DNA from: Candidatus Saccharimonadota bacterium
GTDB lineage: Bacteria > Patescibacteriota > Saccharimonadia > Saccharimonadales > AWTP1-31
Direction of reading: 5' to 3'
DNA: 58,690 nucleotides
NCBI GenBank assembly: GCA_052034955.1
Contig: JBPOHZ010000009.1
Span: 1 to 58,690, forward strand
Shown here: in pieces, positions 3,789-22,089 of the stretch
How the letters are laid out: each line of letters starts with the position of its first letter
Position numbering within the stretch: the stretch's first letter is position 1
Made by a program: the position numbers and the translations under genes
The notes under the pieces: model-generated
Database searches by the model: none
What the model was told of the DNA's origin: nothing
The model's input: only the letters and a program-made list of their open reading frames with translations

Positions 3789-3797
3789 ATTACTTAT

Positions 3798-3826
3798 ATA
3801 ATAACAAGAAACACAGGATTTGTCAA
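3798..3826 (-). promoter_or_regulatory. sigma70-type promoter: TTGACA, 17-nt spacer, TATTAT, then 9 nt to ATG 3788
   Basis: Minus strand reads TTGACAaatcctgtgtttcttgtTATTATataagtaatATG. No Shine-Dalgarno, so the leader would be very short or absent. Confidence 0.55.
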
Positions 3827-3880
3827 TATCACTCAATACGCAATTGACTATATGTATTTTTCATGAGATAGTAGACTATT

Positions 3881-4456: not shown

Positions 4457-4509
4457 CTGGGTAATTGATAAATTACCCCTGATGCTGTATCCTAAACTGG
4501 TACCAAGAT

Positions 4510-4585
4510 GGCTCTTTAGCTCAGTTGGTAGAGCAGCGGCCTGAAGAGCCGCGTGTCCCCAGTTCGAGTCTGGGAGGAGCCACCA
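4510..4585 (+). tRNA. tRNA-Phe (anticodon GAA), CCA encoded
   Basis: Acceptor GGCTCTT/AGGAGCC, D-loop AGTTGGTA, anticodon stem GCGGC/GCCGC with loop CTGAAGA, T-arm CCCAG-TTCGAGT-CTGGG. Confidence 0.92.
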
Positions 4586-4592
4586 AATTAAA

Positions 4593-4617
4593 GCCCCGAC
4601 ATTTTGTCGGGTTTTTA
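4593..4617 (+). terminator. rho-independent terminator after tRNA-Phe
   Basis: Stem CCCGAC/GTCGGG, loop ATTTT, then TTTTT. Confidence 0.7.
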
Positions 4618-4721
4618 ATTTGGCTAGACACCTGTCTAGGGCGCGAACTGGCCAGTTCGTTCATGACGAACACTCGCAGGTGCTTGCACCGAGAATGTGA
4701 GGAAATGGGTCGAAGACCGCC

Positions 4722-4738
4722 CTGGGAGGAGCCACCAA
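4722..4738 (+). repeat. 17-nt exact direct repeat of the tRNA-Phe 3' end (copy of 4570-4586)
   Basis: CTGGGAGGAGCCACCAA occurs at 4570-4586 (T-stem 3' strand to CCA+A) and again at 4722-4738. The upstream sequence cannot form a T-stem, so this is not a second tRNA. Confidence 0.85.
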
Positions 4739-4745
4739 TAATAAT

Positions 4746-4770
4746 ACCTCAGCAAAGCTGGGGTCTTTTT
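4746..4770 (+). terminator. rho-independent terminator after the duplicated tRNA 3' end
   Basis: Stem ACCTCAGC/GCTGGGGT (one G-U pair), loop AAA, then CTTTTT. Confidence 0.6.
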
Positions 4771-4980
4771 ATTAATGCCAAACCGGAACTCTTTGTTTAA
4801 TACCAAAACATTCAACACAAGTTTGAGAATTAGTAATTTCACCGATCGTTAGGCTCCGCTTCGTGGTAACATATGTGTATGGCAGCAAAATTAGTATTTG
4901 CAAAGAAGACTGACAAAAAAATGGTCAAGAAGTTGGCACAGAGTATGAAGTCAACACTTATTTCTCTTGCAGATAAATAA

Positions 4981-5367
4981 TGCTTATCTATATTCCACAT
5001 AATTGACTCAGCGGTACACAGACCTAAGACATATCTAGCCTATCATGATGGTTGTGACCTTCATACGGTCTGTGCGGTGATACTTGACTCAATAGCGAGG
5101 AACCATGCCTTTGTTGACGGTAATAAACGGACGGGGCTACTTAGTGCCATCCTCACCTACGAGTTGAATGGTATCAGGCTTGGTGGTAGGGCGGATAAGA
5201 CGGGTGAGTTCGAGGAGCTTGTATCATGGGTTGTCACAGAGAAGCCCTCTGTTGAGGAAATTACCCCACGACTTAAAGTTTTGGCTACAAAGTATCAGGT
5301 AAGCGGGATAAGTAAATTCGTAGAGAAGGTGCGAGCCATACTCACGCCTTATGACAGCACCGAGTAA
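4981..5367 (+). pseudogene. doc: Doc (death-on-curing, Fic-fold) toxin gene, N-terminally truncated remnant
   Basis: Fic/Doc motif HAFVDGNKRT. The in-frame upstream extension (IIDSAVHRPKTYLAYHDG..) still looks Doc-like but is cut by a TAA at 4978-4980. About 20-25 N-terminal residues are missing compared with P1 Doc. The only start in the ORF track is a GTG at 5077. Confidence 0.65.
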
Positions 5368-5419
5368 TTACGAGATACACTCTAATTAGTGTCGTCCATA
5401 ATGCAATTCGAGTTTTCCT

Positions 5420-5436
5420 TGGTAGAGGCCACCAAT
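5420..5436 (+). repeat. degenerate (14 of 17) third copy of the tRNA-Phe 3' end core
   Basis: TGGTAGAGGCCACCAAT compared with TGGGAGGAGCCACCAAT. It lies just downstream of the Doc remnant. Confidence 0.3.
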
Positions 5437-5520
5437 TTTCGTAACAGAGGTGGCCCCGATGATATTTAGGAGCGAGTAGCAAGACTTTAAGCAGGCTAGG
5501 TTCTGGTCTAGTTACATGTT

Positions 5521-5529
5521 TGCTATGCT
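5521..5529 (+). promoter_or_regulatory. extended -10 element TGCTATGCT, 6 nt before ATG 5536
   Basis: TGnTAnnnT followed by aggaac and then ATG. No Shine-Dalgarno. Confidence 0.45.
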
Positions 5530-5535
5530 AGGAAC

Positions 5536-5979
5536 ATGGCTAAGGCACCTCGTCACTCGGTAAATGTTGTTGTATTGATGCTCTTGGTAAAATATGACAA
5601 GGTCCTGCTGATGCGTCGGCAGAATACCGGCTGGTCGGATGGTAACTACGACCTAGTGGGCGGTCATCACGATGGACGCGAGACCTTGCGCCAGGCCTTG
5701 GCCCGCGAGGCACATGAAGAAGTTGGGATTACGATTAATCCCGATGATGCAACTTTTATACACTTACTCCAATATGTGGACGACAAAGAATATTTATACG
5801 GCTATTACAAAGTCGAATCGTGGCAGGGGGTGCCCGAAATTAAAGAACCACAAAAGTGTGATGACCTGCAATGGTTCCCCTTGGACAGCTTGCCCCAGAA
5901 CATGGTTCCGGTAACTAAACACGTTATTGATCAATACAAATCTGGTGAAGTATATACTGAATTCATACCGACCCCTTAA
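5536..5979 (+). CDS. NUDIX hydrolase
   Basis: Complete Nudix box GHHDGRETLRQALAREAHEEVGI (Gx5Ex7REUxEExGU). Confidence 0.85.
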   Translation: MAKAPRHSVNVVVLMLLVKYDKVLLMRRQNTGWSDGNYDLVGGHHDGRETLRQALAREAHEEVGITINPDDATFIHLLQYVDDKEYLYGYYKVESWQGVPEIKEPQKCDDLQWFPLDSLPQNMVPVTKHVIDQYKSGEVYTEFIPTP

Positions 5980-5990
5980 CACTCTCTAGT

Positions 5991-6019
5991 TTGACATGTC
6001 AGTGGCAGGGTGTAATAAT
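5991..6019 (+). promoter_or_regulatory. sigma70-type promoter: TTGACA, 17-nt spacer, extended -10 TGTAATAAT
   Basis: TTGACA at 5991-5996, TG at 6011-6012, AATAAT at 6014-6019. Confidence 0.5.
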
Positions 6020-6100
6020 CTAACCCTATGATTAGTACAAAGCGCATTACCAAGGCAAAGATTTCGCTCTAGTCGGCGCGGCCGCGTTTTGCACATAAGG

Positions 6101-6126
6101 TCCCGCTCCGGCGGGATCTTTTCTTT
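6101..6126 (+). terminator. rho-independent terminator or attenuator
   Basis: Stem TCCCGC/GCGGGA, tetraloop TCCG, then TCTTTTCTTT. It lies about 100 nt downstream of the 5991 promoter. Confidence 0.55.
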
Positions 6127-6184
6127 GCCAAAGAATGATTCATGTAGGGCAGCACGGCACTACACACTAAATTATGGAGAAGAC

Positions 6185-6535
6185 ATGTTAGATTTTACAG
6201 ATAGAAAAATGGTATCAAGGGGCGTAGAGGCGCTTATGTGTCCTGACGTTGTCGAGACATTATGCGGAGAGGCGACCAAATATCGTGTTATTGGAAGAGT
6301 TATATTGTGGGAGCAGCCAGACGGGTAAGTTTTGTTCCATCTTCCAGATGTAGTTAGTTTGGATGTCGAGGCTCGCCGACTTTTTCTACGTCCAGCGTTA
6401 GGCCCAGGACATAACCATGTTCCAGAAGAATTTATGGGCGTTCTGCCGGTTCTTGCCGCCCGGACGCTCGACGGTTGTGATGCCTACTTTGACTTGTCGG
6501 TCGGACAAGAACTAGATATTCAGCCTCTGGGCTAG
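6185..6535 (+). pseudogene. hypothetical gene interrupted by an in-frame TAA (6326-6328), or two tiny adjacent ORFs
   Basis: ORFs 6185-6328 and 6332-6535 share one reading frame and are separated by a single stop codon. GGAG-type RBS lies before ATG 6185. The region looks more GC-rich than its neighbours by eye. Confidence 0.35.
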
Positions 6536-9741: not shown

Positions 9742-10200
9742 TTATAAAGTTGGGGCTGAAGACTGCTCTATGGTTTGTTCGGCTGTCTTTTGGCAGCCTT
9801 CGCAGATGCCTTTAAGTTCGATTGAATGATGCGTTAGTGTAAAGTTATTAGCTTTCTCTAGTACACCCAGCTCATTTTCTAGACCTTCGCTGCGGAGACC
9901 GGTTGTTTTGCCGCATTTGATGCAGGTAAAGTGATGGTGATGAGGAGAGAACGCTTCGCTGAGCTCGACTTTGCTCTTAAAGCCCATCCAGACTCTATGT
10001 ATGATGCCGACTTTTTCAAAAACATCAATAACACGGTATACACTAACTCTATCTACAGCACCCTGGAGCTGGTTAGCAATCTCGACGGTACTGAGCGGAT
10101 CGTGGGTAACAGCTAACGCCTTGAATACCTCTAGCCGTGGTTTGGTTACGCGGTAGTCTTGTTCGGCTAATAGCGACTTGAGTCTTTCTGTCTGTTCCAT
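9742..10200 (-). CDS. Fur-family metalloregulator (Fur/Zur/PerR type)
   Basis: Winged-helix N-terminus (RVTKPRLEVFKAL..STVEIANQL..VSVYRVIDVFEKVGIIHRV), then HHHHFTCIKCGKT and CEGC forming a CxxC...CxxC site. ATG at 10200 is preferred over the TTG at 10236. Confidence 0.85.
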   Translation of the reverse strand: MEQTERLKSLLAEQDYRVTKPRLEVFKALAVTHDPLSTVEIANQLQGAVDRVSVYRVIDVFEKVGIIHRVWMGFKSKVELSEAFSPHHHHFTCIKCGKTTGLRSEGLENELGVLEKANNFTLTHHSIELKGICEGCQKTAEQTIEQSSAPTL

Positions 10201-10237
10201 ATTGCAAAATGTAACACTAATGCAACTATTTTGCAAT
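10201..10237. promoter_or_regulatory. divergent promoter and candidate operator: ATTGCAAAAT, 17 nt, ATTTTGCAAT inverted repeat
   Basis: Perfect 10-nt inverted repeat at 10201-10210 and 10228-10237. The minus-strand promoter TTGCAA (10231-10236), 17-nt spacer, TGTTACATT (10208-10216) and 7 nt to ATG 10200 lies inside it. Confidence 0.55.
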
Positions 10238-10250
10238 AGTTAGATACTTT

Positions 10251-10919
10251 ATGCATAATAATGCAAGAATGAAGATCCATGAGAATTTCCAGTTGTTCTG
10301 GGAAGAATTTAGCCAACAACCAGCCAATAAGTACGGTTTTCACGACTGGCAGGTGGCCGCATTCTTGCATATTGGCGATCAAGAATATGCTCGTCAACGA
10401 CAACTAGGTACGGACGAACTAGGCTTCCAGCCGCTAACAGTCACTTTGGCTAATCCGCTTTCCAAACAAACCGATGAGCATCTAGTAAAACACGTAGACG
10501 ATAGTCTAGCAGAGCGGTTCCTGTCTTTTGCTCGAGATCGTTATATCAGTGAGCTCGCTAATCGATTTGGTAGTTTTACTCCCGACGAAATTCACGCATT
10601 TGCCGAGTATGATACATGGGACAACTTTTATTCACACTGGCTGGAGCGTGATGGAAAGCAGGTGTTTACGAAGAATGTACCGCTGCTTATTGACCACACA
10701 CCAAAGATTGAATACTGGACTCGCAAGCAATCTGGTGCAGAAGTTCTGCCTTATCAACGTCTACTGATTACCACCTACTTCGTATCCAAGAAAAAGTTTT
10801 ACAGTTTCTTTATAAAAGAGATTGACGATGCACAGTTTGAACGTATTAAGTTACTAATGCAGAGTAGGGTAGGCTTGCATATAAACGAATTCTTAAGTAC
10901 CACTAAGGTTGGCGTATGA
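10251..10919 (+). CDS. hypothetical cytoplasmic protein, first gene of the operon divergent from the Fur-like regulator
   Basis: 222-aa ORF. Its stop overlaps the next start (GTATGAGT), which implies translational coupling. Confidence 0.55.
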   Translation: MHNNARMKIHENFQLFWEEFSQQPANKYGFHDWQVAAFLHIGDQEYARQRQLGTDELGFQPLTVTLANPLSKQTDEHLVKHVDDSLAERFLSFARDRYISELANRFGSFTPDEIHAFAEYDTWDNFYSHWLERDGKQVFTKNVPLLIDHTPKIEYWTRKQSGAEVLPYQRLLITTYFVSKKKFYSFFIKEIDDAQFERIKLLMQSRVGLHINEFLSTTKVGV

Positions 10920-12466
10920 GTGCTGGAGCCCAAGAAGCTCTAAGATTTCAGCATGAAGCCACTGCTAGCTTTGAGCAACAGAGCCAAGTTCACAATCATT
11001 ATGAACAGATTCAGCCTGACTTCGATGTGGAACACGGTAATGAAGGACATGTTTGTAATGCGAACTGTGAGCACTCTCAGTCACAAGCAGACATGCTTAG
11101 TGATGATTTATTCGCAGAAGGTGCACATGAACATGTCTGTGGGCCAGACTGCGAACACTCTAGTCATGCGGCAAACGAAATTGCTGATACTTTGTTTGAA
11201 GATTTAGAACAACCGGACTTACAAAAAGTTAAATCCCATATTACGGAGTCGAAAGTAATAACCGATCAAGAAAAGGCTAATGATCAGGCCAAAGACTTGC
11301 AGCATGATCATGAAGGAGAACCACATGTGTGTCATGCGAATTGCGAGCATAACCAAGGCAAGGCTAATAAGCATGCTGATAGCCTCTTCGAAGAATTAGA
11401 CTCGAATGCCAATAAGCAGTCTGATAATATAGCAAACACAGTTAAAAACCTGCTTGAAGAAGTTGCGATTAGTGACGCTCAAGCCGCCGCGCTTCATGCC
11501 TTGCAGCTCGAACAACAGCATCTTACCGATGCTGAACTAAGTGTTCGTCCAGAAGAGCATGATACTAGTGTCATAGAATCTGTGGCCGGCAAAGATATGG
11601 CGGAAAGTGTAAAAGAACTATACGTTCAGAATGAGGCAAAGAGACAAGCCGAAGACGCAGCTATCACTCCTCGTCCTGAAACCGAGACAGAATTAGTGTC
11701 GTCTCTAGGCGAAGAACCCCTTGATATCGAAGAGGCTAGCAGTTACGAGCTTCAGGAAATTGTACCTAATGCCCAGGTCATAGCAGGGCAAGGATTTATG
11801 GACGCGGTTGCTACGCCAGAAGACTATCTAGTCGATGATGCAGAGACTCCAGTAGTAATTGGTCCAGTTGATACCAGTGATTTGTTCGTTTATGATTTGC
11901 CCGAACCTGAAGCCGTGTCATTAAATATTGTTGAGATAGAGAATTCTGATGCGGATTTAGCTAGCTACGTTTTAGAATCCGATCATAGAGAAAATAGTAC
12001 GCCACAGGGACTGGGTATAGAGCATGGCATGCATCAAGACGTGATTTCTGCGCTGCATGAGTCTATTGACAGTGCCAGCTCTGAACGGGTGCAACAACTT
12101 ATTGGTCAAATACTAGAAGTTGCAGAAGGTAGCTTAAGTTCAATAGAAGGGTTCACGATGTATTCACCCGAGCTTCGCGTGAAGCTCTCTGAACTAGCTG
12201 ATTTGCTTTCGATGGATTTTGAAGAGCTAATTGAAGTAATGGATATTACTATTGATAATGAATCTTTGACTTTTGACCAGCAAGCTTACGAGATTCTACT
12301 CGGACTAAAGAAGGATATAAGTATGGAATACAGTCTTGAGTTCACTCAGACTGGTTCTACCCAAAATGCTAGTGCAAAACCAATCATAACTCGCGTACTT
12401 GGTCAGCTAATATTGTTCATTCTTGCTTCAAATAGTGCAAAACGGCCACATGCTCTAGCCGCGTAG
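10916..12466 (+). CDS. acidic protein with three H-V-C-x3-C-E-H repeats and a C-terminal hydrophobic tail
   Basis: 516 aa. Repeats are GHVCNANCEHS (nt 11048-11074), EHVCGPDCEHS (11132-11158) and PHVCHANCEHN (11324-11350). Each is followed by A-x4-D-x-LFE. The protein is very D/E-rich and ends ITRVLGQLILFILASNSA. Confidence 0.6.
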   Translation: MSAGAQEALRFQHEATASFEQQSQVHNHYEQIQPDFDVEHGNEGHVCNANCEHSQSQADMLSDDLFAEGAHEHVCGPDCEHSSHAANEIADTLFEDLEQPDLQKVKSHITESKVITDQEKANDQAKDLQHDHEGEPHVCHANCEHNQGKANKHADSLFEELDSNANKQSDNIANTVKNLLEEVAISDAQAAALHALQLEQQHLTDAELSVRPEEHDTSVIESVAGKDMAESVKELYVQNEAKRQAEDAAITPRPETETELVSSLGEEPLDIEEASSYELQEIVPNAQVIAGQGFMDAVATPEDYLVDDAETPVVIGPVDTSDLFVYDLPEPEAVSLNIVEIENSDADLASYVLESDHRENSTPQGLGIEHGMHQDVISALHESIDSASSERVQQLIGQILEVAEGSLSSIEGFTMYSPELRVKLSELADLLSMDFEELIEVMDITIDNESLTFDQQAYEILLGLKKDISMEYSLEFTQTGSTQNASAKPIITRVLGQLILFILASNSAKRPHALAA

Positions 12467-12856
12467 AACACTCACAGCTGCCGCGCAGGAAGATTTAAGT
12501 GCCTCCTCAAGACCAGCAGGCATACCATGGTGTAGCTCGCTCTCGATAATAGCAAGTCCTGACTCGCGTACTGACAACCTACCGGCAAACTTACCATGTA
12601 CTCCAAACATATCGAGTTCATGGTGTTCGTCATACCCAATTATTTCAGCTGCTCGGTCAGTATATTCGCCGAGTGCTGCGCGGTGACTGTCTCTAAAAAC
12701 ACCAAAGAACTGATTCACGCGCTGGACGGGAAATCGGTCGCTTTCGATTGTATTAGTAATAAATGCTTCGCCTATCATCATATGAGCAAGGCCGTGTTGA
12801 ATATCTGCGTCTGTTTGGATCATAATCTCTCTCAAATTAATATCAAAGCAAACCAT
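12455..12856 (-). CDS. hypothetical small His-rich cytoplasmic protein
   Basis: ORF 12455-12892. The ATG at 12856 sits 8 nt after TGTTACATA (12865-12873) with TTGCAA at 12887-12892. An alternative ATG lies at 12874. Contains DEHHELDMFGVHG and ELHHGMP. The 3' end overlaps the convergent gene by 12 nt. Confidence 0.45.
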   Translation of the reverse strand: MVCFDINLREIMIQTDADIQHGLAHMMIGEAFITNTIESDRFPVQRVNQFFGVFRDSHRAALGEYTDRAAEIIGYDEHHELDMFGVHGKFAGRLSVRESGLAIIESELHHGMPAGLEEALKSSCAAAVSVLRG

Positions 12857-12952
12857 ACCACTTTTATGTAACATAACGCAAAAAAGTTGCAATAAACAAA
12901 GCTATTTGCACCTAACTACTTTGGTACTTCCCCTTGAGGTATAGTTAGTGTA

Positions 12953-13972
12953 ATGGCGCCAACAAAGCACTACCTACATAGTAGTAAAAAGTTACAATCT
13001 CCCATGTGGGGTGTTGCGTTCATTTTGGTGTTGCTGGTTGTCAGGCAATTTAGTAATTCGCAAACATCTGTAGTTCTTCCAAAGATGTTGCAAGACTTTA
13101 TTACACTTTCTGTAAGCGTTATCATAGAGGCTTTGCCGTTTGTACTGTTGGGAATAGTTTTATCTATATTGGTGCAGATTTGGCTGCCTCAATCAGTATT
13201 CTTTCGAATTATTCCAAAACGAAGAGTGCCGCGGCGACTGGTGTTATCTTGTCTAGGTATATTCCTGCCGGTCTGCGAATGTGGCAATGTTCCGCTTGCT
13301 AGGGGTTTGATGATCAGGGGGTTAACGCTTGGCGATTCACTGACTTTTTTGCTGGCAGCTCCGATAATTAATCCGGTCACCATCCTTACTACCCACCAAG
13401 CATTCGGCGGCGATAGTACTATACTAGTATTTCGATTGTTAGGCGGTTTGCTTATTGCAAACATTGTTGGATGGTTGTTTGACAGTCGAAAGAACCAAGA
13501 TGAACTACTCACAGATGAATTTGCCGCGACCTGCCGCGTTGATCATACTCATGAGTCGTCTGGCAGCCGAAGCAAGCTAAGTGAAAGTCTTCGTCTATTT
13601 ATTCGCGAATCAAACGTAATTGTTCCGGCATTGTTTGTTGGTAGTTTTATCGCCGGGCTGGTCCAGGTTGTTATCCCTCGTGATATTCTTCTGTCTTTGG
13701 GCGGTCATGTAGTTCTTTCAATTGTTGTAATGATGCTACTGGCATTCATTGTCTCTATTTGTGCTAATGTTGATGCTTTCTTTGCCCTGGCATTTGCTAA
13801 CACCTTTACGGCAGGTTCGCTGGTAACTTTTTTGATCTTTGGACCAATCATTGATATCAAGATGCTTAATTTAATGCACACAACTTACAAGAAACCAGTG
13901 TTAGTAACAATTACCATAGTCACCATTCTGGTTAGTGGGTTACTTGGTTTGGTGGTGAACTATGCGTTCTAG
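12953..13972 (+). CDS. PF03773/UPF0718-type permease (partner of a TIGR03943 protein)
   Basis: 339 aa, multi-TM, with the conserved PVCECGNVPLARGL motif. TATAGT lies 7 nt before the ATG. Confidence 0.75.
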   Translation: MAPTKHYLHSSKKLQSPMWGVAFILVLLVVRQFSNSQTSVVLPKMLQDFITLSVSVIIEALPFVLLGIVLSILVQIWLPQSVFFRIIPKRRVPRRLVLSCLGIFLPVCECGNVPLARGLMIRGLTLGDSLTFLLAAPIINPVTILTTHQAFGGDSTILVFRLLGGLLIANIVGWLFDSRKNQDELLTDEFAATCRVDHTHESSGSRSKLSESLRLFIRESNVIVPALFVGSFIAGLVQVVIPRDILLSLGGHVVLSIVVMMLLAFIVSICANVDAFFALAFANTFTAGSLVTFLIFGPIIDIKMLNLMHTTYKKPVLVTITIVTILVSGLLGLVVNYAF

Positions 13973-14690
13973 TTTGGCGCGGCTAATAAACAGACGGGGT
14001 ACAGTTTTAACTCTTTTTGGCGTGGTTGCAACCATTTGGTTAAAATTATCAGGCCAACTAAATCTATATATACACCCTAGATACTTTACTTTCAGTGTAG
14101 TTATGGCTGTGGTCGGCGGCTATCTGTGTGTGCAGGATATCCGTCAAAAATCGACGATTAATATCGACCAATTGTCTGAGCGACAATACATTTCACTTGG
14201 TTTAATCTTGCTATCGTTTGTGGCTCTGCTTGTATTAAAGCCATCATCGTTATCAAGCAGTATTGCTATGCAGAGAGGAATTAATAGCGGTAGTAATACT
14301 GAAGTCTTAAGTAAACTGACAAACTTTGATGTTATCTCGCCATTCGGCAATACTGGAACATCACAACTGACCGTTAAGGATTGGGCGAATTTGCTCAGTC
14401 AGACCTCAGATCAGACTTTTTTTGCCGGGAAGAAAGCCAAAGTATCTGGTTTTGTGACCGCGGACTCCAACAATAACATCTTTTTTGTGTCTCGATTTGT
14501 CGTGTCTTGTTGTGCCGTAGACGCTCGACCCATTGGCGTACCCGTCTATAAAGCAAACTGGCAAGCTACCTACCAAAAAGATGAATGGGTTGAGGTGTCT
14601 GGAGTCTTCGGAGTATATGATGGTCAAATTTCTCTTAAGCCCGAAACGATTACTCCAATTTCGCAACCGGAGAGTCCATATGTTTACTAA
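13962..14690 (+). CDS. TIGR03943/DUF1980-family membrane protein (two-component permease partner)
   Basis: 242 aa. Two N-terminal TM segments and a C-terminal domain with the SRFVVSCCAVDARPIGVPV motif. It overlaps the permease gene by 11 nt. Confidence 0.7.
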   Translation: MRSSLARLINRRGTVLTLFGVVATIWLKLSGQLNLYIHPRYFTFSVVMAVVGGYLCVQDIRQKSTINIDQLSERQYISLGLILLSFVALLVLKPSSLSSSIAMQRGINSGSNTEVLSKLTNFDVISPFGNTGTSQLTVKDWANLLSQTSDQTFFAGKKAKVSGFVTADSNNNIFFVSRFVVSCCAVDARPIGVPVYKANWQATYQKDEWVEVSGVFGVYDGQISLKPETITPISQPESPYVY

Positions 14691-16095
14691 ATCACTGAGT
14701 AAACTTTCGGGAAATAAGCTTTGGGCTGTAAGTCTGGGGCTAGGCGGGCTTGCTCTGATTTTCTGCATACTGCTACTTTTCAGTGGTCCAAGAATCCGCC
14801 GAGTGGTTTACGATGCTGATAAATTGCCGCGAGAAGTAAACCAAACCATTGTACTAAGAAGTAATCAACCGTTAGCTAATATTGATAAAGCACAGGTTAC
14901 AATAGACCCGAAAGTAGAGTTTAACCTCACCACAAGTGGTGAGGCGGCAATTATCCAACTCAAGCAACGGCTGAGCTATGATACTAAATACAAGGTGACC
15001 ATTAAGGACTTTGCTGCAAAGTCTGGCCGTAAAGCTTCGTACGAAACTACTATCCATACCGGTAAGGCTTCATATTTTTATCTTAAGCGCAGCCAAAATA
15101 TATCCCTTGAGTCCTTATATGGTGACAAAATTCCCGACACCATATATAGCGGAAGTATAGATGACAAAGATCAAGTAGTATATCAAGCATACAAGATTTT
15201 GGAGTTCGCGCCGCTCGGAAGTCGACTAGTTATACACCACGAAGACGAGGACGAGAGACAATATCTAACAATTTATAACCCTAAAGATAAAACTGAAGAA
15301 GATGTAAATTTGCCAGAAGACAATGGCACGATAGATCAGTTACGGGTATCATCGACAAATGAGTTAGTGGGCTTCCTGTTCTCTAGCAAGTTTGATCCAA
15401 AAAAAGATAATAAGTATAACTCAACACTCTTTGCCTATGACACGGGAAGTAAATTTGTATTTCCACAATACGGTTTGGAGCGGGGCAAATTATTATCAGT
15501 CAGTTCATGGCGATTCCACCCTGACGGAACTAGTATGATCATTCAAACTTTTGATAATACGCTACTGCTAGTGGACTACTACTCCAATCAGAAACCTGTG
15601 CCGTTGGGTTCATACTTTAGTATTGGTACTTTCTCACGTGACGGAAGAAAAGTGGTAGTGGGCGACAATGACAATGGTCCGGTGATACTTGAGCTAGAAG
15701 GCCAAAAGAAAGTAGTGCCCGAGGCAGGCATAATTAACGGTATCGAATCAGATGCCTCCGAGATTATACTGCTCCAAAATAGTGATGATTATATTCTTAT
15801 CAAAGAAGCCTACAGAGAATCAGATGGCGCATACACTCGTGTTGCAGAAGTAACACGTGGGGCGCAGAAACAGGTAATATATTCCTCGAATCAAAGACAA
15901 GAGCAGCTCTTCGAGCTCAACAGCTCGCCCAATGAACAGATGGCGTCCATTGAGCTCTCGGATGTATTCAAAAACAGGAAGTTTGATGGATACGGAACAA
16001 TTTCGAGGCCAACTAATATGCGAACACGCATAGTAGATATAAATACAGGTAAAACTATTAAAGATTTCGACGGTTTTCAGCTCCACTGGTATTAA
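14680..16095 (+). CDS. secreted or membrane-anchored protein with an Ig-like N-domain and a TolB-like beta-propeller region
   Basis: The ATG at 14680 overlaps the upstream stop (ATGTTTACTAA). A signal-anchor (LWAVSLGLGGLALIFCILLLF) is followed by repetitive beta-strand-rich sequence. The ORF track start at 14533 lies inside the upstream gene. Confidence 0.55.
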   Translation: MFTKSLSKLSGNKLWAVSLGLGGLALIFCILLLFSGPRIRRVVYDADKLPREVNQTIVLRSNQPLANIDKAQVTIDPKVEFNLTTSGEAAIIQLKQRLSYDTKYKVTIKDFAAKSGRKASYETTIHTGKASYFYLKRSQNISLESLYGDKIPDTIYSGSIDDKDQVVYQAYKILEFAPLGSRLVIHHEDEDERQYLTIYNPKDKTEEDVNLPEDNGTIDQLRVSSTNELVGFLFSSKFDPKKDNKYNSTLFAYDTGSKFVFPQYGLERGKLLSVSSWRFHPDGTSMIIQTFDNTLLLVDYYSNQKPVPLGSYFSIGTFSRDGRKVVVGDNDNGPVILELEGQKKVVPEAGIINGIESDASEIILLQNSDDYILIKEAYRESDGAYTRVAEVTRGAQKQVIYSSNQRQEQLFELNSSPNEQMASIELSDVFKNRKFDGYGTISRPTNMRTRIVDINTGKTIKDFDGFQLHWY

Positions 16096-16243
16096 TCATT
16101 AACTACGCTACCAGCTAGCTACATTATAGTTCACTGACGTTACGGCATCTGTATATGGCTTCCGGTTGGCATACTTTTGAAAGAACTGATTAGATATCGA
16201 CAATTCTACAATTCGCACTACAGATGGACGAGTACTGACAGGA

Positions 16244-16624
16244 ATGCGAACTCTTAAGAGTCTAGGCACCAAAGGATCTGATGTTGAACAGGCAGAGAAT
16301 CCTTTTTTAAGGGAGGGCGCTATTTATACAGCTCGTGTTGGAGCGCCAATATTAGGAAGTCTTGCAATAAGGCGTTCTCCAGATTTGGTAGGTGGTTTTT
16401 ATCCACCGGAGTTTTATTACTATACACAAAAGGATTTGCAGGTGAATCAGACCGTACTTAATGTGACACCTGATGATGCTTTTGCAGCAGCTAAGCTTTA
16501 TGATGATTTATTCTTTCCAGAAATAGGTGAAGTTAATTTGCTAGGAATCTCCGAGGACACAGTCTCTGAAATTCGTTCATTAGAAGCACAAGCATTTGCA
16601 ACGGCTCAAGGACTTCGTAGTTAG
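16244..16624 (+). CDS. hypothetical protein
   Basis: 126-aa ORF with no recognisable motif. Confidence 0.4.
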   Translation: MRTLKSLGTKGSDVEQAENPFLREGAIYTARVGAPILGSLAIRRSPDLVGGFYPPEFYYYTQKDLQVNQTVLNVTPDDAFAAAKLYDDLFFPEIGEVNLLGISEDTVSEIRSLEAQAFATAQGLRS

Positions 16625-16784
16625 TAACTCACCCCTTTAAGATAAATTAACTTAATCCTTCGGGTAATTTGTCTGAAGATAAAAAAATATAGATTCATAA
16701 TCAAACTACGATATGTAAATTTTCTAACATCGATCTTTATGTCTCGGTGATAGAATTAGGGCATATGTAAATAGGAGACTTGTT

Positions 16785-17165
16785 ATGGCAAAATACGTAG
16801 ACGGATTTGTGCTAGTAGTACCAAAAGATAAAGAAGCAGAGTATCAAAAAATGGCCGAAGATGGTCGTGACTCCTGGATGAAACACGGCGCACTTCAGTA
16901 TTTTGAATGTCGAGGCGATGACCTTAAACAACAAGAAATGGGTGACGAGAAATCTCGTTCAATTATCGAAATGACTGGGGCTAAGGCCGAAGAGAATGTT
17001 TGGTTTTCCTTTATTGTTTTTGAATCTAGAGAGCACCGAGAGAAAGTCAATGCAGCTGTCATGAAAGAGATGGGCGAAACTTACGACGAAAACAGCGATT
17101 TTGTGTCACCTGTAGATATGACCAAGATGACTTACGGTGGATTCGAAGTAGCTGTCGAAGCCTAG
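16785..17165 (+). CDS. DUF1428-family protein
   Basis: MAKYVDGFVLVVPKDK...WFSFIVFESREHRD-like pattern ending GGFEVAV. AGGAG RBS 6 nt upstream. Confidence 0.7.
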   Translation: MAKYVDGFVLVVPKDKEAEYQKMAEDGRDSWMKHGALQYFECRGDDLKQQEMGDEKSRSIIEMTGAKAEENVWFSFIVFESREHREKVNAAVMKEMGETYDENSDFVSPVDMTKMTYGGFEVAVEA

Positions 17166-17174
17166 GATATTTAT

Positions 17175-17567
17175 ATGCAAGAGCAAAACTGGTACAGACA
17201 GTTAAATAAACCCCAGTGGGCACCAGATGAAAAAGTGTTTGGTCAGGTTTGGTCAAAGCTTTATGTAATAATTGCCGCAGTAAACATTTGGGTAGTAGTT
17301 TTGCTTATACAAAACAAGATTAGCTGGAAGGTAGCACTACCTTTTTGGGTTAACTTGTTTTTCAACGCAATATTTACACCTATTCAGTTTGGATTAAAGA
17401 ATAATCTATTAGCAACTCTAGATATTTTTATAGTTTTGGGCACCATTATTTGGGCGATGTGGTCTATCTGGCCTTATGCCTATTGGCTTGCTTTAGCCTA
17501 TATCCCCTACTTAGTTTGGGTCATTATTGCTACAGTTCTACAGATATCAATCACCATTAAAAACTAA
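17175..17567 (+). CDS. TspO/MBR-family tryptophan-rich membrane protein, short form apparently lacking TM1
   Basis: WYRQLNKPQWAPDEKVFGQVWSKLY matches the loop region of TspO that normally follows TM1. Here it is at the extreme N-terminus (130 aa). Confidence 0.65.
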   Translation: MQEQNWYRQLNKPQWAPDEKVFGQVWSKLYVIIAAVNIWVVVLLIQNKISWKVALPFWVNLFFNAIFTPIQFGLKNNLLATLDIFIVLGTIIWAMWSIWPYAYWLALAYIPYLVWVIIATVLQISITIKN

Positions 17568-17647
17568 AAGCTTAACATTTAAGTAGTAAATATCCTGCAT
17601 AGGCACTATACTCTTACAAGTAATAAAAATAACTAGAAGGATTATAA

Positions 17648-17836
17648 ATGGTTACAGGTTACAGTGTTAAGGCAAAGAAAAAAGTAGAAATCGTAGACCC
17701 AGTAATTTCGAAGACTGCACGAGGCGGATATATTGCTAAAGGAAAATGCCCAGAAACTGGCATAACTGTTTGCGCAATGATGTCTAAAGAAAATGCCGAA
17801 AAAGCAATCGAAGAAGGTGCTACTAAAGCTTACTAA
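17648..17836 (+). CDS. small basic protein (62 aa), monocistronic
   Basis: GAAGGA RBS. About 11 Lys/Arg against 7 Asp/Glu. Hairpin downstream at about 17858-17880. Confidence 0.5.
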   Translation: MVTGYSVKAKKKVEIVDPVISKTARGGYIAKGKCPETGITVCAMMSKENAEKAIEEGATKAY

Positions 17837-17881
17837 ATCAGCTTAGTGCATTATTAAAGGGGCCTGTACTGGCCTCTTTAT

Positions 17882-17890
17882 TGTTATCAT
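17882..17890 (+). promoter_or_regulatory. extended -10 element TGTTATCAT, 6 nt before ATG 17897
   Basis: TGnTAnnnT followed by aacttt and then ATG. Confidence 0.45.
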
Positions 17891-17896
17891 AACTTT

Positions 17897-18418
17897 ATGG
17901 AAGTAATATTATCGATGGCTGTTTCGCTAAATGGGATGGTCGCCCGTGAAGATGGTCAAGAGGATTGGTTGCCAGCTGCTGGCTGGGATGACTTCTTAGC
18001 TGATGTTCATAGTTTCGGTAACTTTATCATGGGACGCGAAACATATGAACTAGTAAACCAACTTTATCCTGATCATAACTTTAACGACATAACAGATTCC
18101 CTAAAGGTAATAGTTACCCGTAACAAAGACTACAAAGCGGACTCAGGGTACACCGTTGTTCATAGTCCAGAAGAAGCTTTAAAAATTGTAAAAGATAAAG
18201 GTTGTGAAACAGCACTTCTGATTGGTGGCGGTAAAATCAATAGCCATTTCTTATCCCAAGGATTGGTAGACAAAGTTTGGCTAACTTACAACCCTCACAT
18301 TCTGGGTAAGGGCAGGCCGTTCATCAGCCCTGAAGATTTAGATATTAGTTTGACTCTTCTAGAATCTAAACAATTATCACTTGGAAGAATTCAAGCACAT
18401 TACAAGGTAAATAAATGA
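17897..18418 (+). CDS. dihydrofolate reductase-family protein (RibD C-terminal domain type)
   Basis: SMAVSLNGMVA..EDW......FIMGRETYE...LIGGGKIN pattern. Confidence 0.7.
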   Translation: MEVILSMAVSLNGMVAREDGQEDWLPAAGWDDFLADVHSFGNFIMGRETYELVNQLYPDHNFNDITDSLKVIVTRNKDYKADSGYTVVHSPEEALKIVKDKGCETALLIGGGKINSHFLSQGLVDKVWLTYNPHILGKGRPFISPEDLDISLTLLESKQLSLGRIQAHYKVNK

Positions 18419-18852
18419 AAACTACTTATCAAACGACAGTTATTGGCCACGGAAATCATGCCTCAATTGAGATACCAGATATAAATCTTAAAGAAATAGG
18501 TGGCAATAAACGTGCTCCCCTCAAGATCACAGTCAATGGATATACATATCAGAGCACTGCAACGGGAGTGGATGGTAAATGCATGGTAGTTTTTCCGACA
18601 AAGGACCGTCATGCATCTGGAGCAAAAGCAGGTGATATAATATCGGTCACTTTAGAGCTAGATTCTGGCTATCGTGAAGTATCTATTCCACCTGAACTTC
18701 AAAGTGCATTAGCGACGAGTGGATTAGGTAAAATTTTCGAAGATCTAGCATACTCAAAACGAAAAGAATTTGCTCGGCAAGTCACAGATGCAAAAGCCGA
18801 AGATACTAAAAATCGACGTATTGAAAAAATTATACAAAGCATAAAGTCCTGA
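18415..18852 (+). CDS. DUF1905 / YdeI-OmpD-associated family protein
   Basis: N-terminal DUF1905-like beta domain and a C-terminal LAYSKRKEFARQVTDAKAEDTKNRRIEK motif. ATGA start-stop overlap with the upstream gene. Confidence 0.6.
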   Translation: MKTTYQTTVIGHGNHASIEIPDINLKEIGGNKRAPLKITVNGYTYQSTATGVDGKCMVVFPTKDRHASGAKAGDIISVTLELDSGYREVSIPPELQSALATSGLGKIFEDLAYSKRKEFARQVTDAKAEDTKNRRIEKIIQSIKS

Positions 18853-18864
18853 TAACATAAATCT

Positions 18865-19317
18865 ATGAGCAAGGCCGACGAACGAAACGACATAACAGTA
18901 GAAGAGTATATTCAAACTCTCCAGGACGGAACACTTCAAAGTGACGCAATAAAAATAGCAGATATGATGCAACGCATCAGTGGGCAAAAGCCTCAGCTAT
19001 ATGGCTTTGGAACAATTGGTTTTGGTGTCTACGAATATCATTACAAAAGTGGACGAAAGGGCGATGCCCATACTATCGCCTTCTACCCTCGTAAGGGGAA
19101 GATCACTGTATACATATCAGATGGTACTAATCGCTATTCTGATTTACTAGACAAACTTGGAAAACACACTATTACTGGATACTGCGTTTACATAAAACAA
19201 CTCAGCGACATTGATTTTAAGGTTCTCGAACAAATAGTTCAAAAATCTTACGACAATATTGCCGAACTATCCAAAGACGGCCCCATCGATCACATACTCT
19301 GGCAAGACGAGAAATAA
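18865..19317 (+). CDS. DUF1801 (YdhG-like) domain protein
   Basis: VEEYIQTL...IADMMQRISGQKPQLYGFGTIGFG.YEYHYKSGRKGDAHTIAFYPRKGKITVY pattern. Confidence 0.6.
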   Translation: MSKADERNDITVEEYIQTLQDGTLQSDAIKIADMMQRISGQKPQLYGFGTIGFGVYEYHYKSGRKGDAHTIAFYPRKGKITVYISDGTNRYSDLLDKLGKHTITGYCVYIKQLSDIDFKVLEQIVQKSYDNIAELSKDGPIDHILWQDEK

Positions 19318-19321
19318 TATT

Positions 19322-19330
19322 TGGTATGAT
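19322..19330 (+). promoter_or_regulatory. extended -10 element TGGTATGAT, 6 nt before ATG 19337
   Basis: TGnTAnnnT followed by tagtaa and then ATG. Confidence 0.45.
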
Positions 19331-19336
19331 TAGTAA

Positions 19337-19756
19337 ATGAATAAAACACCGATTACCGTTAGCGTGAATGTTAAATCAAGTTTAGATAAAGTTTGGGACG
19401 CCTGGACATTACCCAGGCACATAACTGGCTGGGCATTCGCCTCCGACGACTGGGAAGCTCCTAGTGCACAGAACGACCTTAGGGTAGGCGGTAAATTTGT
19501 AACGGTTATGGCAGCAAAAGATGGAAGTGCAAAGTTTGATTTCGATGGCCAATACACTGAAGTTGATGACAAAAAATTGATCGCTTACAACATGACTGAT
19601 GGTCGGAAAGTCAAAATCGAATTTACAGAAAACCCCGATGGCGTACAAATTTCAGAAACATTTGATCCAGAACAAGAGAACTCAGCAGAACAACAAAGAC
19701 AAGGTTGGCAGGCAATCCTAGAAAACTTTAAGATCTACGCTGAACGCCAGAACTAA
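19337..19756 (+). CDS. SRPBCC-superfamily protein (AHSA1/START-like)
   Basis: ITVSVNVKSSLDKVWDAWT.P..I..W......W.......DLRVGGKF...........F.F.G.Y.EV pattern and a C-terminal GWQAILENFK. Confidence 0.7.
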   Translation: MNKTPITVSVNVKSSLDKVWDAWTLPRHITGWAFASDDWEAPSAQNDLRVGGKFVTVMAAKDGSAKFDFDGQYTEVDDKKLIAYNMTDGRKVKIEFTENPDGVQISETFDPEQENSAEQQRQGWQAILENFKIYAERQN

Positions 19757-22089
19757 ATTCGGGTACCAGTAAAGATCCAAAGAAGATCTTCTTCGCTAGG
19801 TACAGGTGTGTTTCGAGCTTTCTCGGCGATAGGGTACAAGTGAGACTCGTTTAATGGCACAAATACATCTGTCCATTGACGTCGTGCAGCAGATTCTGGA
19901 GAAAACTCTACAAAATCAGCATCAGGGTTTGATCCCCAATCAGCTGTAATTAGCTTGTGCATAGACTTAGAAGCGTTGTAGCCCTGTGCATAGCCATTTC
20001 GACCTTGTACTCTGTTGGCTCGAGCTTCTGGTTCCTCGCTGAAAGATGCTCTAATTCCAGTCAATATGTTAGCTGCAGCTTCAGCCCAATGTTCAGCGGC
20101 ATTTGTTCGTGCATATTGGCTCATAAATCTACCGATTCGGGCAAAAACAGCTTCGGTTAATCTAGGGTCTGTAGTCTTAACATTTTCTACACGAGGTTCT
20201 ATTTGACCATTAACCATTTGGGTTCCACGCTTAATATCCCATTTAAGGTCAGTGTCATATGGACGTCGTAGAAGTTTTTGCCAGAAGGTACGTGTATCTT
20301 GACCACGTTCTTCAGCTGTAACTCTATCGTAGTCAGACTGAGCTTTATCGGCAAAGCGTCCGTTGGTAAAGTACACCTTATGACCCCATGCCTCACCAGT
20401 TGACATCAATTTATTCTTTTCATTATTTAGGTCTGTAAAGTGACCAGCTATCTCGTGAGCGGCAACCCATAATGGACCCATGCGATCTTGCATTTCTTCT
20501 TCTGTAGGATCTGTCGGCATGTGCATTTCTACAAGTCCAAAACTTCCATAGGCAAGTCCTAAGATGCCGCTTTCACGCTGGATATCAAGTCCAAGTCCAA
20601 CTTTCTTTGGATTCTGATGTCTGGTTCCGGCGTTTTCACTTGGGTAGATTGCGACCATGTTTAGCTCACTTCCAACACGTCCGGCTTGTAGCTGGCTAAC
20701 GTTTCGGAAAAGATCTTTAATCATTTCTTTACTTCGTTCAGTAGGTTTGTGGTCAATAAAGATGGCATTCAAGCTCTTTCGATCGCCATTGTCATCAGTG
20801 TATTCAAGCTGATATGTATCTTGGATACGATCATCTTCGCGGAACAAATCCTGATATTTACGAGCATATACCCAAGCTTCAGCTACAAGCTCATCAGTAG
20901 CTGTTTTCGCTTCTGGGTAAAGCTTTAGGAATTCTGGTTCTGGCATCTCAGCAGGTACGTCTACATACTGTTTGCGTACATACTCATACATCTTTTTTCG
21001 GAAGCGAGGAAGTGGAGGAATTGGTACTATCAAACCCGTTAGATCATAGTCGTGATTCTCGTTTGGATCACCATCGGGCTCACAGATTTCCTCGGGTTTA
21101 CCAGGGTTGACTGTTACAGTAGTAGTTTCGAAATCTATTGTGGCTTGTAAGCCTCTCTTACTTCCAATGTGCTTATCAAAAACATCTTTTACTCTTGAGT
21201 CAAGAGAATCTGGGAATATATTGTAAGTACTTAGGAAATATTCAAGACTTCCCACGCCTTCCTCGGCAATCCCATTATTTGCCTCGATAATGGCATCAGT
21301 AATTTCTTTTAGCTCTTCAGGTTTAAGAACAACTTCTTTAGCTTCAATCTTTGCGCCACTAATATCAATTCCACGTTCGGCAGCAACAGCGTTAACTGCT
21401 TGCATAAATTTCAACGCTCTAGCTGGAGCTAGTACGTCAGCGTTTTCTGGGTTTGGATGTTCGAATCCTACATTATCATCATCTCCACGGTAATCGTCGG
21501 AAGCTAAGAATACAAAAGTTAATTCTGCTTTTGTGTCCTGTGATTTAGCGTTTGCTATTGTGGCAAGTAGCTCGTCAACCTCTGCCAAATTTGGTTCAGA
21601 TGACCCAACACTTTGAAGTGAAACAAACTTCTCAACTCTTTGCTTTGTTGTTTCTTTAGTTGTAGATTCGGCTTCTCCTGGTTTGCAGACTTCGCCAATA
21701 TGGAAGTGATCTTCGATGCTATCTTTGACACCTTGAATAACTTCAATACCGTCTTCTCCTGCAGTTGCAATATCATCAATGTTGGCAATAACATTGGCAG
21801 CACCAGTTAGTACTAACGATGCAATTAGAGCATTACGAGGTGTTATTAACCAACCGTTTCGTGCTAATCCAGGTATAAGAACAGTTTCACCCTCTACCGC
21901 AACACGGTGTGCACGTCGGAAGCGACTTTGGGGACGGAATCTGTCGATCAAGAATGCTTCCATTCGTTCAGTTGATACGTAGTCTGGTTTAGGCTGTTGA
22001 TCTGGATCATTAGGCTGAACAGGCAAAGGATAGACGTTCTCGACTATCTCATGAGGGTGTTGTTCGATTGGCTGGGTTAATTCGGGCAT
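19753..22089 (-). CDS. large membrane-anchored protein with an HExxH zinc-peptidase motif (possible gluzincin)
   Basis: 778 aa. One TM segment (ALIASLVLTGAANVIANI). WVAAHEIAGHFTD, and about 120 aa further on NAAEHWAEAAANI. GGAG RBS. Promoter TTGCAT (22140-22145), 17-nt spacer, TAAACT (22117-22122). Confidence 0.6.
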   Translation of the reverse strand: MPELTQPIEQHPHEIVENVYPLPVQPNDPDQQPKPDYVSTERMEAFLIDRFRPQSRFRRAHRVAVEGETVLIPGLARNGWLITPRNALIASLVLTGAANVIANIDDIATAGEDGIEVIQGVKDSIEDHFHIGEVCKPGEAESTTKETTKQRVEKFVSLQSVGSSEPNLAEVDELLATIANAKSQDTKAELTFVFLASDDYRGDDDNVGFEHPNPENADVLAPARALKFMQAVNAVAAERGIDISGAKIEAKEVVLKPEELKEITDAIIEANNGIAEEGVGSLEYFLSTYNIFPDSLDSRVKDVFDKHIGSKRGLQATIDFETTTVTVNPGKPEEICEPDGDPNENHDYDLTGLIVPIPPLPRFRKKMYEYVRKQYVDVPAEMPEPEFLKLYPEAKTATDELVAEAWVYARKYQDLFREDDRIQDTYQLEYTDDNGDRKSLNAIFIDHKPTERSKEMIKDLFRNVSQLQAGRVGSELNMVAIYPSENAGTRHQNPKKVGLGLDIQRESGILGLAYGSFGLVEMHMPTDPTEEEMQDRMGPLWVAAHEIAGHFTDLNNEKNKLMSTGEAWGHKVYFTNGRFADKAQSDYDRVTAEERGQDTRTFWQKLLRRPYDTDLKWDIKRGTQMVNGQIEPRVENVKTTDPRLTEAVFARIGRFMSQYARTNAAEHWAEAAANILTGIRASFSEEPEARANRVQGRNGYAQGYNASKSMHKLITADWGSNPDADFVEFSPESAARRQWTDVFVPLNESHLYPIAEKARNTPVPSEEDLLWIFTGTRI

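Follow-up and report, generated by a model that had tools for sequence, protein, structure and literature searches.

In Gram-positive bacteria such as Bacillus subtilis, Bacillus anthracis and the actinobacteria, Zur regulons are organised around a Fur-family repressor with a Cys4 structural site, which binds an AT-rich 7-1-7 or 9-1-9 palindrome over its target promoters, regulates its own gene and controls ZIP or AdcA/ZnuA-type importers. Electrophoretic mobility shift assays have shown that the Zur of B. anthracis, in purified form, also binds between yciC and BAS1632, an ArsP_1 permease gene (PMC6336718). Here we describe a locus of seven genes (positions 9742-16095) in a 58,690-nt stretch of DNA, hereafter the window, that appears to share this organisation, including a putative binding site for the regulator beside a PF03773 (ArsP_1) permease operon; the importers are found in its relatives. 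We consider that the locus is probably the core of a zinc-starvation (Zur-type) regulon of a Saccharimonadales bacterium. It differs from the Gram-positive regulons in its operator sequence, TGCAA-N5-TTGCA, and in having as its invariant core three lineage-restricted proteins, which we call p2, p3 and p4.

All seven open reading frames (ORFs) were found at the coordinates and on the strands given in a preliminary description of the window, which had proposed a metal system around a Fur-family regulator with zinc as the first guess. The regulator gene (9742-10200, minus strand) precedes p2 (10251-10919, plus strand), which encodes a cytoplasmic protein of a Saccharimonadales-restricted family. 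Translational coupling of p2 to p3 (10916-12466, plus strand; 516 amino acids (aa), acidic) had been proposed, and the two genes indeed overlap as ATGA. The p4 gene (12455-12856, minus strand), coding for a small, predicted helical protein, is convergent with p3, and the 12-nt overlap of their 3' ends was confirmed. The remaining genes, all on the plus strand, encode the PF03773 permease (12953-13972), a TIGR03943/DUF1980 partner subunit (13962-14690) and p7 (14680-16095), a membrane-anchored, extracytoplasmic protein of 471 aa with an Ig-like segment and a WD40-type beta-propeller. The ATG of p7 had been placed on the stop codon of the preceding gene; it lies at 14680, 8 nt before the DUF1980 stop (14688-14690), and the real overlap is 11 nt.

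The preliminary description had called for a comparison of gene neighbourhoods, and we located the seven proteins in some 14 independent loci of the Saccharimonadales type, across which the neighbourhood was conserved. p2 and p3 were adjacent in all 12 loci carrying p2, and their start and stop codons overlapped or abutted in eight of the nine comparable loci. The p4 gene was convergent behind p3 in 10 loci and adjoined p3 or the Fur gene in 12. The Fur gene lay within 3 kb in 12 loci, and its orthologues adjoined p2 or p4 in 12. The permease-DUF1980-p7 operon was present in seven loci, at varying positions. This map shows that the conserved core consists of p2-p3, usually with p4 and the Fur gene, and that the transporters are variable additions. 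p2, p3, p4 and Fur are all carried by Candidatus Mycosynbacter amalyticus.

A palindrome core was first seen as a feature common to the Fur/p2 intergenic regions of the related loci. The operator, described by a position weight matrix (PWM), is a 21-bp palindrome of the 7-1-7 type with the consensus TATTGCAAATTATTTGCAATA and the core TGCAA-N5-TTGCA. To our knowledge, this core is unlike the published Zur, Fur and PerR boxes. In 196 kb of DNA from 10 non-redundant loci, the exact core occurred 16 times, against 0.2 occurrences expected and a maximum of 2 in 200 shuffles, and all 16 occurrences were in promoter regions of this gene set. The PWM found 24 sites of at least 18 bits in the same DNA, every one again in a promoter region of the gene set, and one extra weak site (12.4 bits) upstream of p4 in locus L012; the best site outside the gene set scored 11.8 bits. 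Five loci added later had sites of 14.6-28.3 bits at the same places, none of them in the training set. The operators were located in the Fur/p2 gap, upstream of p4 (often in common with the permease operon or Fur), upstream of ZIP genes and upstream of an ABC transporter. It could be argued that the genes are chance neighbours in a compact genome and that the TTGCAA repeat is a lineage-typical promoter element, since TTGCAA resembles a -35 hexamer and acts as one at p2, and saccharibacterial genomes are small and gene-dense. The more than 150 other genes in the ~196 kb, however, had no palindrome comparable to the 24 at the gene set, the palindrome stays with the gene set where gene order shifts (L004, L006, L010, L012 and L016-L018), and Fur is almost always adjacent; we regard this explanation as extremely improbable.

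A third operator copy (23.7 bits) was observed downstream of p7 in L008 (13964-13984; the same as L014 16072-16092). It is followed by a reading of an HxlR-type regulator, of which the C-terminal part is intact (...GIVERTHYPVVPPQVEYKLTPIGFELL...) and the N-terminal part is out of frame, so that the gene may be a pseudogene or carry a sequencing frameshift. This region gave no Rfam match.

The window holds exactly two operators, both in the locus, and the next best score in its 58.7 kb was 10.7 bits. Operator 1 (10218-10238, no strand assigned; TAATGCAACTATTTTGCAATA), a 21-bp palindrome between Fur and p2, matches the core exactly and scores 29.0 bits, and an orthologous site was found upstream of p2 in every related locus with upstream DNA covered. 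Operator 2 (12874-12894, no strand assigned; TAACGCAAAAAAGTTGCAATA), in the divergent intergenic region of p4 and the permease gene, has one core mismatch and scores 22.5 bits; it was not in the training set. It precedes the start of p4 by ~50 nt and that of the permease gene by 59 nt, and orthologous sites were found ~30-90 nt upstream of p4 in all p4-carrying loci.

In the p2 promoter, the right half of operator 1, TTGCAA, forms the -35 element and is followed by a 17-nt spacer and CATAAT, which ends at 10259, 9 nt before the ATG at 10269. The same arrangement was found in nine of ten loci, in which a good -10 hexamer stood 17-18 nt beyond the right half-site TTGCA(A/G) and ended 7-17 nt before the p2 start. 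The spacing of the right half-site from the -10 hexamer thus indicates that the operator overlaps the -35 element, which is the usual arrangement for repression by Fur-family proteins. We infer that the regulator binds the operator; once bound there, it would block RNA polymerase, and the genes would be on when metal is short. Consensus scanning found no convincing promoter for the permease operon. Hexamers resembling -10 elements stand only 7-10 nt before the likely starts of p2 and the permease (10254-10269 and 12940-12953), and this closeness to the start codons suggests leaderless or near-leaderless mRNAs in the source organism.

We found that in several relatives the same operator precedes transporter genes of the zinc type. 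ZIP-family genes, for whose proteins the best NCBIfam match was ZupT, join the cluster in three loci (L005, L006 and L009) with the operator directly upstream. In L012 a three-gene metal ABC transporter joins the cluster, and its binding-protein gene is directly downstream of the operator. The L012 binding protein matched two solved zinc proteins, B. subtilis YcdH (223 bits) and Streptococcus pneumoniae AdcA (208 bits), much better than the Mn/Fe binders YfeA, MntA, MntC and PsaA (at most 130 bits), and three of its His positions align with those of YcdH/AdcA. Since the same operator precedes both ZIP and YcdH/AdcA-type ABC transporter genes, the regulator is most likely a Zur, a zinc sensor. 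Zinc is the most likely effector because the ZupT-like ZIP proteins, the YcdH/AdcA-like binding protein and the precedent of B. anthracis Zur together point to it. The metal system with zinc as first guess thus gained support from comparative evidence, namely the neighbourhood, the operator and the zinc-type transporters of the relatives.

Other transporter genes were noticed in these loci. The ATPase of the AdcA/Znu-like transporter (L012 10180-10998) has a C-terminal tail rich in His (HHQHEGHSEAHDPNNRQAHDA). Downstream of this ABC transporter, and on its strand, comes the permease operon, which lacks a separate operator, and the two may therefore be co-transcribed. In L009, the DUF1980 and p7-like genes occur a second time, as a divergent copy (15209-16657) that is convergent to the operator-controlled ZIP gene. 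This copy is probably part of a second permease operon, with a promoter outside the stretch covered by L009. In L020, a gene for a P-type ATPase (E1-E2_ATPase; 4426-6273) is situated ~4 kb upstream of p2, with no operator detected nearby. A TerC/DUF475 membrane protein gene adjoins Fur in five loci (L004 11801-12877, L010 11613-12686, and L016-L018). The TerC family is linked to metal (Mn) export. No operator was found at the TerC/DUF475 gene, and it was rejected as a member of the cluster.

The regulator, a protein of 152 aa, matches PF01475 (E 2e-18) over residues 14-129, which corresponds to a Fur domain made up of a winged-helix N-terminus and a dimerisation domain. Its matches to Fur, Zur and PerR chains in the PDB ranged from E 5e-12 to 1e-6, the best being Fur proteins. 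It contains the structural-zinc signature HHHH-x2-CxxC ... CxxC, and both Cys pairs, C93-x2-C96 and C133-x2-C136, are kept in nine orthologues. The NCBIfam models for Fur scored 57.4 and 53.7 bits, that for Zur 48.5 bits and that for PerR 47.2 bits. All of these are far under the cut-offs of 146-220 bits, so the sequence of the regulator does not by itself separate Zur from Fur or PerR.

In an alternative reading, the regulator would sense iron or manganese (as a Fur or Mur), the cluster would serve to acquire Fe(II) or Mn(II), and the ligand of the p3 Cys/His modules would be iron or an Fe-S cluster. Besides the order of the model scores (57 and 54 bits for Fur, 48.5 for Zur) and the best PDB matches of the regulator, such a reading can draw on the inclusion of Fe/Mn carriers among ZIP and cluster A-I binding proteins, and on the NCBIfam result for the L012 binding protein, 185 bits to AztC versus 173 bits to MntC. 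Yet this protein is far closer to YcdH and AdcA than to the Mn/Fe binders, no Feo, siderophore, ferritin or haem genes were found with the operator in ~250 kb of loci, and Cys2His2-type sites and Cys-pair permease motifs fit a soft metal better than Mn. We therefore consider iron or manganese unlikely as the metal sensed.

The assignment of the permease to PF03773 and of its partner to TIGR03943, made in the preliminary description together with the CECG and CC motifs, was borne out by Pfam and NCBIfam scores. The permease scored 197.8 bits to PF03773 (E 3e-58; gathering cut-off 32.3 bits) and contains an intramembrane PVCECGN motif that is conserved in all six loci compared. The partner, which is encoded directly downstream with an 11-nt overlap, scored 144.9 bits to TIGR03943 (cut-off 88.8 bits) and comprises the DUF1980 N- and C-domains (PF09323, E 5e-7; PF21537, E 5e-17). 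In its C-terminal domain, the motif (S/T)CC(A/T)(V/I)DA, here SCCAVDA, is kept in the same proportion of loci (6/6). We propose that the permease is a transporter of a thiophilic metal.

The best NCBIfam matches of the permease were SaoE (91 bits) and the SO_0444 Cu/Zn efflux family (78 bits), and the curated or characterised PF03773 relatives export their substrates. Some Zur proteins activate efflux or metallothionein genes. These facts would fit a response to metal excess, in which the permease pair exports Zn, Cu, Cd or As, p3 is metallothionein-like and the regulator activates or derepresses the genes at high metal. The authors of the B. anthracis study likewise read the boxes upstream of BAS1632 as activating (PMC6336718). 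Nevertheless, a detoxification system appears quite unlikely. The same operator is found on uptake-type genes in relatives (ZIP and the AdcA/YcdH-like ABC importer), and its position over the -35 element at p2-p3 is a repressing one. The scores to the efflux models are far under their cut-offs (325 bits for SaoE and 300 bits for SO_0444), and neither the TIGR03943 partner nor an outward-facing propeller protein is a feature of ArsP-type exporters.

The third gene of the permease operon, p7, follows DUF1980 in seven loci. Its product has an N-terminal hydrophobic anchor. Of the Ig-like and beta-propeller domains predicted in the preliminary description, the former was found only as a sub-threshold match to Big_5 (E 0.007), and the latter was supported by the family profile, which matches WD40-type beta-propellers (2ymu, E 8.5e-16). 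The family comprises 1,212 representatives at E<=1e-3, mostly full length, and has no conserved His or Cys. A structural role as an outward-facing partner seems likelier for p7 than metal binding. ZepA was considered as a relative; it is a small two-domain protein that carries a signal peptide and an H-x(2-9)-H-[FY]-H site and is anchored through PEP-CTERM (PMC10957091). p7, with its 471 aa, its propeller and no conserved His, differs in size, domains and metal site, inspection of its C-terminus revealed no PEP-CTERM, and the relationship was rejected.

The preliminary description had found no assignable family for at least four of the seven proteins, and profile searches against Pfam, NCBIfam and PDB sequences gave no match for p2, p3 or p4. 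In p3 (isoelectric point 4.3; 20% Asp plus Glu), the three predicted HVCx3CEH repeats, and no more, were present at residues 45, 73 and 137 (11048-11074, 11132-11158 and 11324-11350), and they hold all six Cys of the protein. Each module is followed by an acidic ADxLxDxLF helix motif. The protein consists of a His-rich N-terminus with the modules, a long acidic low-complexity linker, presumably disordered, and a conserved C-terminal helical region. A word-based search gave only two relatives because of the low complexity, and further orthologues were recovered via synteny. The architecture and two to four modules were conserved in all eight orthologues, with the module HG-x-E-G-H-[VI]-C-x3-C-E-H-x-Q-x2-A-[DN]-x-L-A-[DE]-[DE]-L-F. 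No signal peptide and no convincing transmembrane segment were detected in p3 (maximum KD19 1.56); the C-terminal hydrophobic stretch that gave this marginal value is not conserved, and p3 was rejected as a tail-anchored membrane protein. It was also rejected as a bacterial metallothionein (SmtA/BmtA), being 516 aa long with only six Cys and belonging to no Pfam family. In six loci (the window, 12455-12466, and L002, L004, L008, L009 and L020), the last 4-12 nt of p3 and p4 are shared by the two convergent genes, a conserved arrangement that could give rise to transcriptional interference or antisense pairing.

The Cys pairs in p3, the permease and the DUF1980 protein could be redox-active, and the PerR model, at 47 bits, scored close to the Zur model on the regulator. 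A PerR-like peroxide sensor that governs a redox or thiol-stress response through these Cys-motif proteins is, in our judgement, very unlikely all the same: no catalase, peroxiredoxin, Dps or thioredoxin genes occurred with the operator in the examined loci, the operator-linked genes in relatives are metal transporters, and the His residues flanking every Cys pair of p3 are typical of metal sites.

Homologue alignment placed the probable start of p2 at ATG 10269 (MKIHENF...), giving a protein of 216 aa. We detected 43 homologues, uniformly ~215 aa long and without a Pfam match. They are confined to Saccharimonadales-type contigs, and their names include Candidatus Mycosynbacter amalyticus and Candidatus Saccharibacteria. 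A scan of 185,579 species genomes gave four matches, in three metagenome-assembled genomes (MAGs) of Saccharibacteria/Saccharimonadales and one MAG labelled 'uncultured bacterium', and a metagenome scan with the p2 profile gave no match. The AlphaFold2 (AF2) model of p2 had a mean predicted local distance difference test (pLDDT) score of 94.2 and a predicted template modelling (pTM) score of 0.88, and showed a beta-alpha-beta-alpha-beta-beta-alpha unit occurring twice. Comparison of the N-terminal with the C-terminal half by hhalign gave a probability of 92.5% (E 4.8e-7) and paired H40 with H149, Y46 with Y155 and Q60 with Q169. H149, D148 and LGFQP are among the invariant positions, and H40 is nearly invariant. 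Foldseek detected no fold match in the PDB (best E 0.011, template modelling (TM) score below 0.3), and a PDB profile search found nothing. Candidate fold relatives such as HPPD/VOC, Whirly and kinesin were dismissed as noise (TM 0.27 or less), and weak half-domain matches among viral models, to uncharacterised phage proteins, were not convincing. The confident model thus predicts that p2 is an internally duplicated alpha/beta domain without a structural match.

For p4, homologue alignment indicated a probable start at ATG 12823 (MIQTDADIQHG..., 122 aa). The protein is small, as had been described, and only moderately His-rich, with eight His. H10, H14, D71, E87, E94 and H98 are invariant, and E66 and H67 nearly so. 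An AF2 model from a five-sequence alignment was all-helical with a pLDDT of 64. p4 had no Pfam match, no PDB sequence match and no fold match; globins and other hits to this model were set aside as meaningless at such a pLDDT, and a hemerythrin/HHE-like reading of the His/Glu/Asp pattern was without Pfam support.

Taken together, these results suggest the following mechanism. When zinc is sufficient, a metal-loaded regulator dimer would sit on the operators and silence its own gene, p2-p3 and p4, and probably also the permease operon; importers of the ZIP and AdcA types would probably be silenced likewise in relatives. As zinc falls, the genes controlled by the regulator would be expressed. 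The permease with its membrane C-E-C motif, the DUF1980 protein with its outward-facing C-C motif and the anchored p7 would then import a thiophilic cation, most likely Zn(II). In the cytoplasm, p3 would capture or buffer the scarce incoming zinc on its two to four His/Cys modules, and p2 and p4 would be partners that hold the metal or pass it on; they may replace the COG0523 chaperones of other Zur regulons. The regulatory wiring in this scheme draws on sequence evidence from many loci. We infer repression, zinc as the effector, the direction of transport and the binding of metal by p2, p3 and p4. More tentatively, and with rather less confidence than in the regulon itself, p2-p3-p4 might constitute a new Saccharibacteria-specific module for cytoplasmic zinc capture and allocation, with p3 as a new class of acidic metallochaperone or buffer and p2 as a new duplicated fold, and the PF03773/TIGR03943/propeller operon might be a new type of high-affinity zinc importer.

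Several observations weigh against a zinc-starvation regulon. The assignment is a product of sequence comparison, and the zinc-type transporters on which it leans sit in relatives and not in the window, where the uncharacterised permease is the sole candidate. Fe and Mn are possible substrates of both ZIP and cluster A-I ABC transporters. On the regulator, the Fur models score slightly above the Zur model, although all are far below cut-off, and at the position where several Zur proteins have their sensing-site Cys the regulator seems to carry a Glu, as Fur and PerR do. That the permease operon is under the regulator is less certain, because operator 2 is placed for p4, and the BAS1632 boxes were read as activating in the study cited above. 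Known PF03773 members such as ArsP are exporters, and the SO_0444 family is named Cu/Zn efflux transporters by NCBI. Among the proposed metal-handling proteins, p2 has few candidate metal ligands, p7 has no conserved one, and the model of p4 is of low confidence. Nonetheless, no rival explains the operator-linked zinc-type importers as well as a Zur does.

The remainder of the window contains ordinary chromosomal genes, including those for LigA, LeuRS, phosphoketolase and BipA, and tRNAs. Together with the names of the p2 homologues, these identify the window as a chromosome fragment of a Saccharimonadales bacterium (Patescibacteria, or candidate phyla radiation (CPR)). Directly downstream of the locus, at 16244-19756, is a series of small genes on the same strand without an operator, annotated in the identical contig L001 as DUF1428, TspO/MBR, DUF5679 (weak), RibD_C/DHFR-like, DUF1905/OmdA, DUF1801 and AHSA1. 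Four large ORFs (423-778 aa; 308-1594, 2565-3836, 19753-22089 and 28826-31123) had no Pfam match at E<=1e-5, a typical trait of CPR 'dark matter'.

The genomes of Patescibacteria are tiny, and the gene regulation of these bacteria and their metal supply on host cells are little understood. We found no paper on zinc or Fur regulation in the group, and the locus may provide a concrete regulator-operator pair with a defined regulon for a CPR lineage. It also offers a testable route to new zinc-handling proteins, for which standard biochemistry and the few cultivated Saccharibacteria suffice, and the p2, p3 and p4 families are candidates for new metal-handling chemistry.

The permease and its partner correspond to ScfA/ScfB of group A Streptococcus, also known as YcgR/YcgQ in Bacillus and as SMU_746c/747c, which belong to the same two families, are likewise encoded by adjacent, overlapping genes and have conserved Cys motifs. 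For these homologues only phenotypes are described, namely fitness of group A Streptococcus in tissue and blood and acid tolerance of Streptococcus mutans, with no known substrate (PMC5584981). Our literature search on DUF1980, TIGR03943 and PF03773 returned almost nothing on function. The present pair differs in having a third, propeller gene and in being located in or beside operator-controlled units of a putative zinc-type regulon. The comparison would link this widespread permease, a streptococcal fitness and virulence factor, to zinc limitation, and if it is indeed a zinc importer, the ScfAB/YcgRQ family would finally gain a substrate. ArsP and the SO_0444-type Cu/Zn efflux proteins share the PF03773 superfamily and a vicinal Cys pair in a membrane segment. 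They are lone exporters, however, in contrast to the permease here, with its TIGR03943 partner, its uptake-type regulatory context and its scores far below the efflux cut-offs.

The cytoplasmic proteins can be compared with the COG0523 chaperones (YciC/ZagA, ZigA, YeiR and Zng1), to which the proposed role of Zur-controlled zinc allocation by Cys/His sites in the cytoplasm would be analogous. The likeness is functional only: the two groups are unrelated in sequence and domains, Pfam and NCBIfam searches found no GTPase/CobW domain in p2, p3 or p4, and p3 is built as an acidic protein of several modules. Genes for a COG0523 GTPase, an alternative ribosomal protein or FolE2 were not seen in any of the loci examined. 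The streptococcal Pht proteins, which act with AdcAII, are similar in that repeated short metal-binding modules feed an importer under zinc regulation, as proposed for p3. Pht proteins, by contrast, are secreted, carry HxxHxH triads and are controlled by AdcR, whereas p3 has His/Cys modules and lacks a signal peptide. The overall logic of the locus is therefore that of the well-known Zur regulon. What is new is its operator sequence, its setting in Patescibacteria, the three uncharacterised families that form its invariant core in place of COG0523 or alternative ribosomal proteins, and the occurrence of a PF03773/TIGR03943 pair with a propeller protein in or beside transcription units that are predicted to be zinc-regulated.

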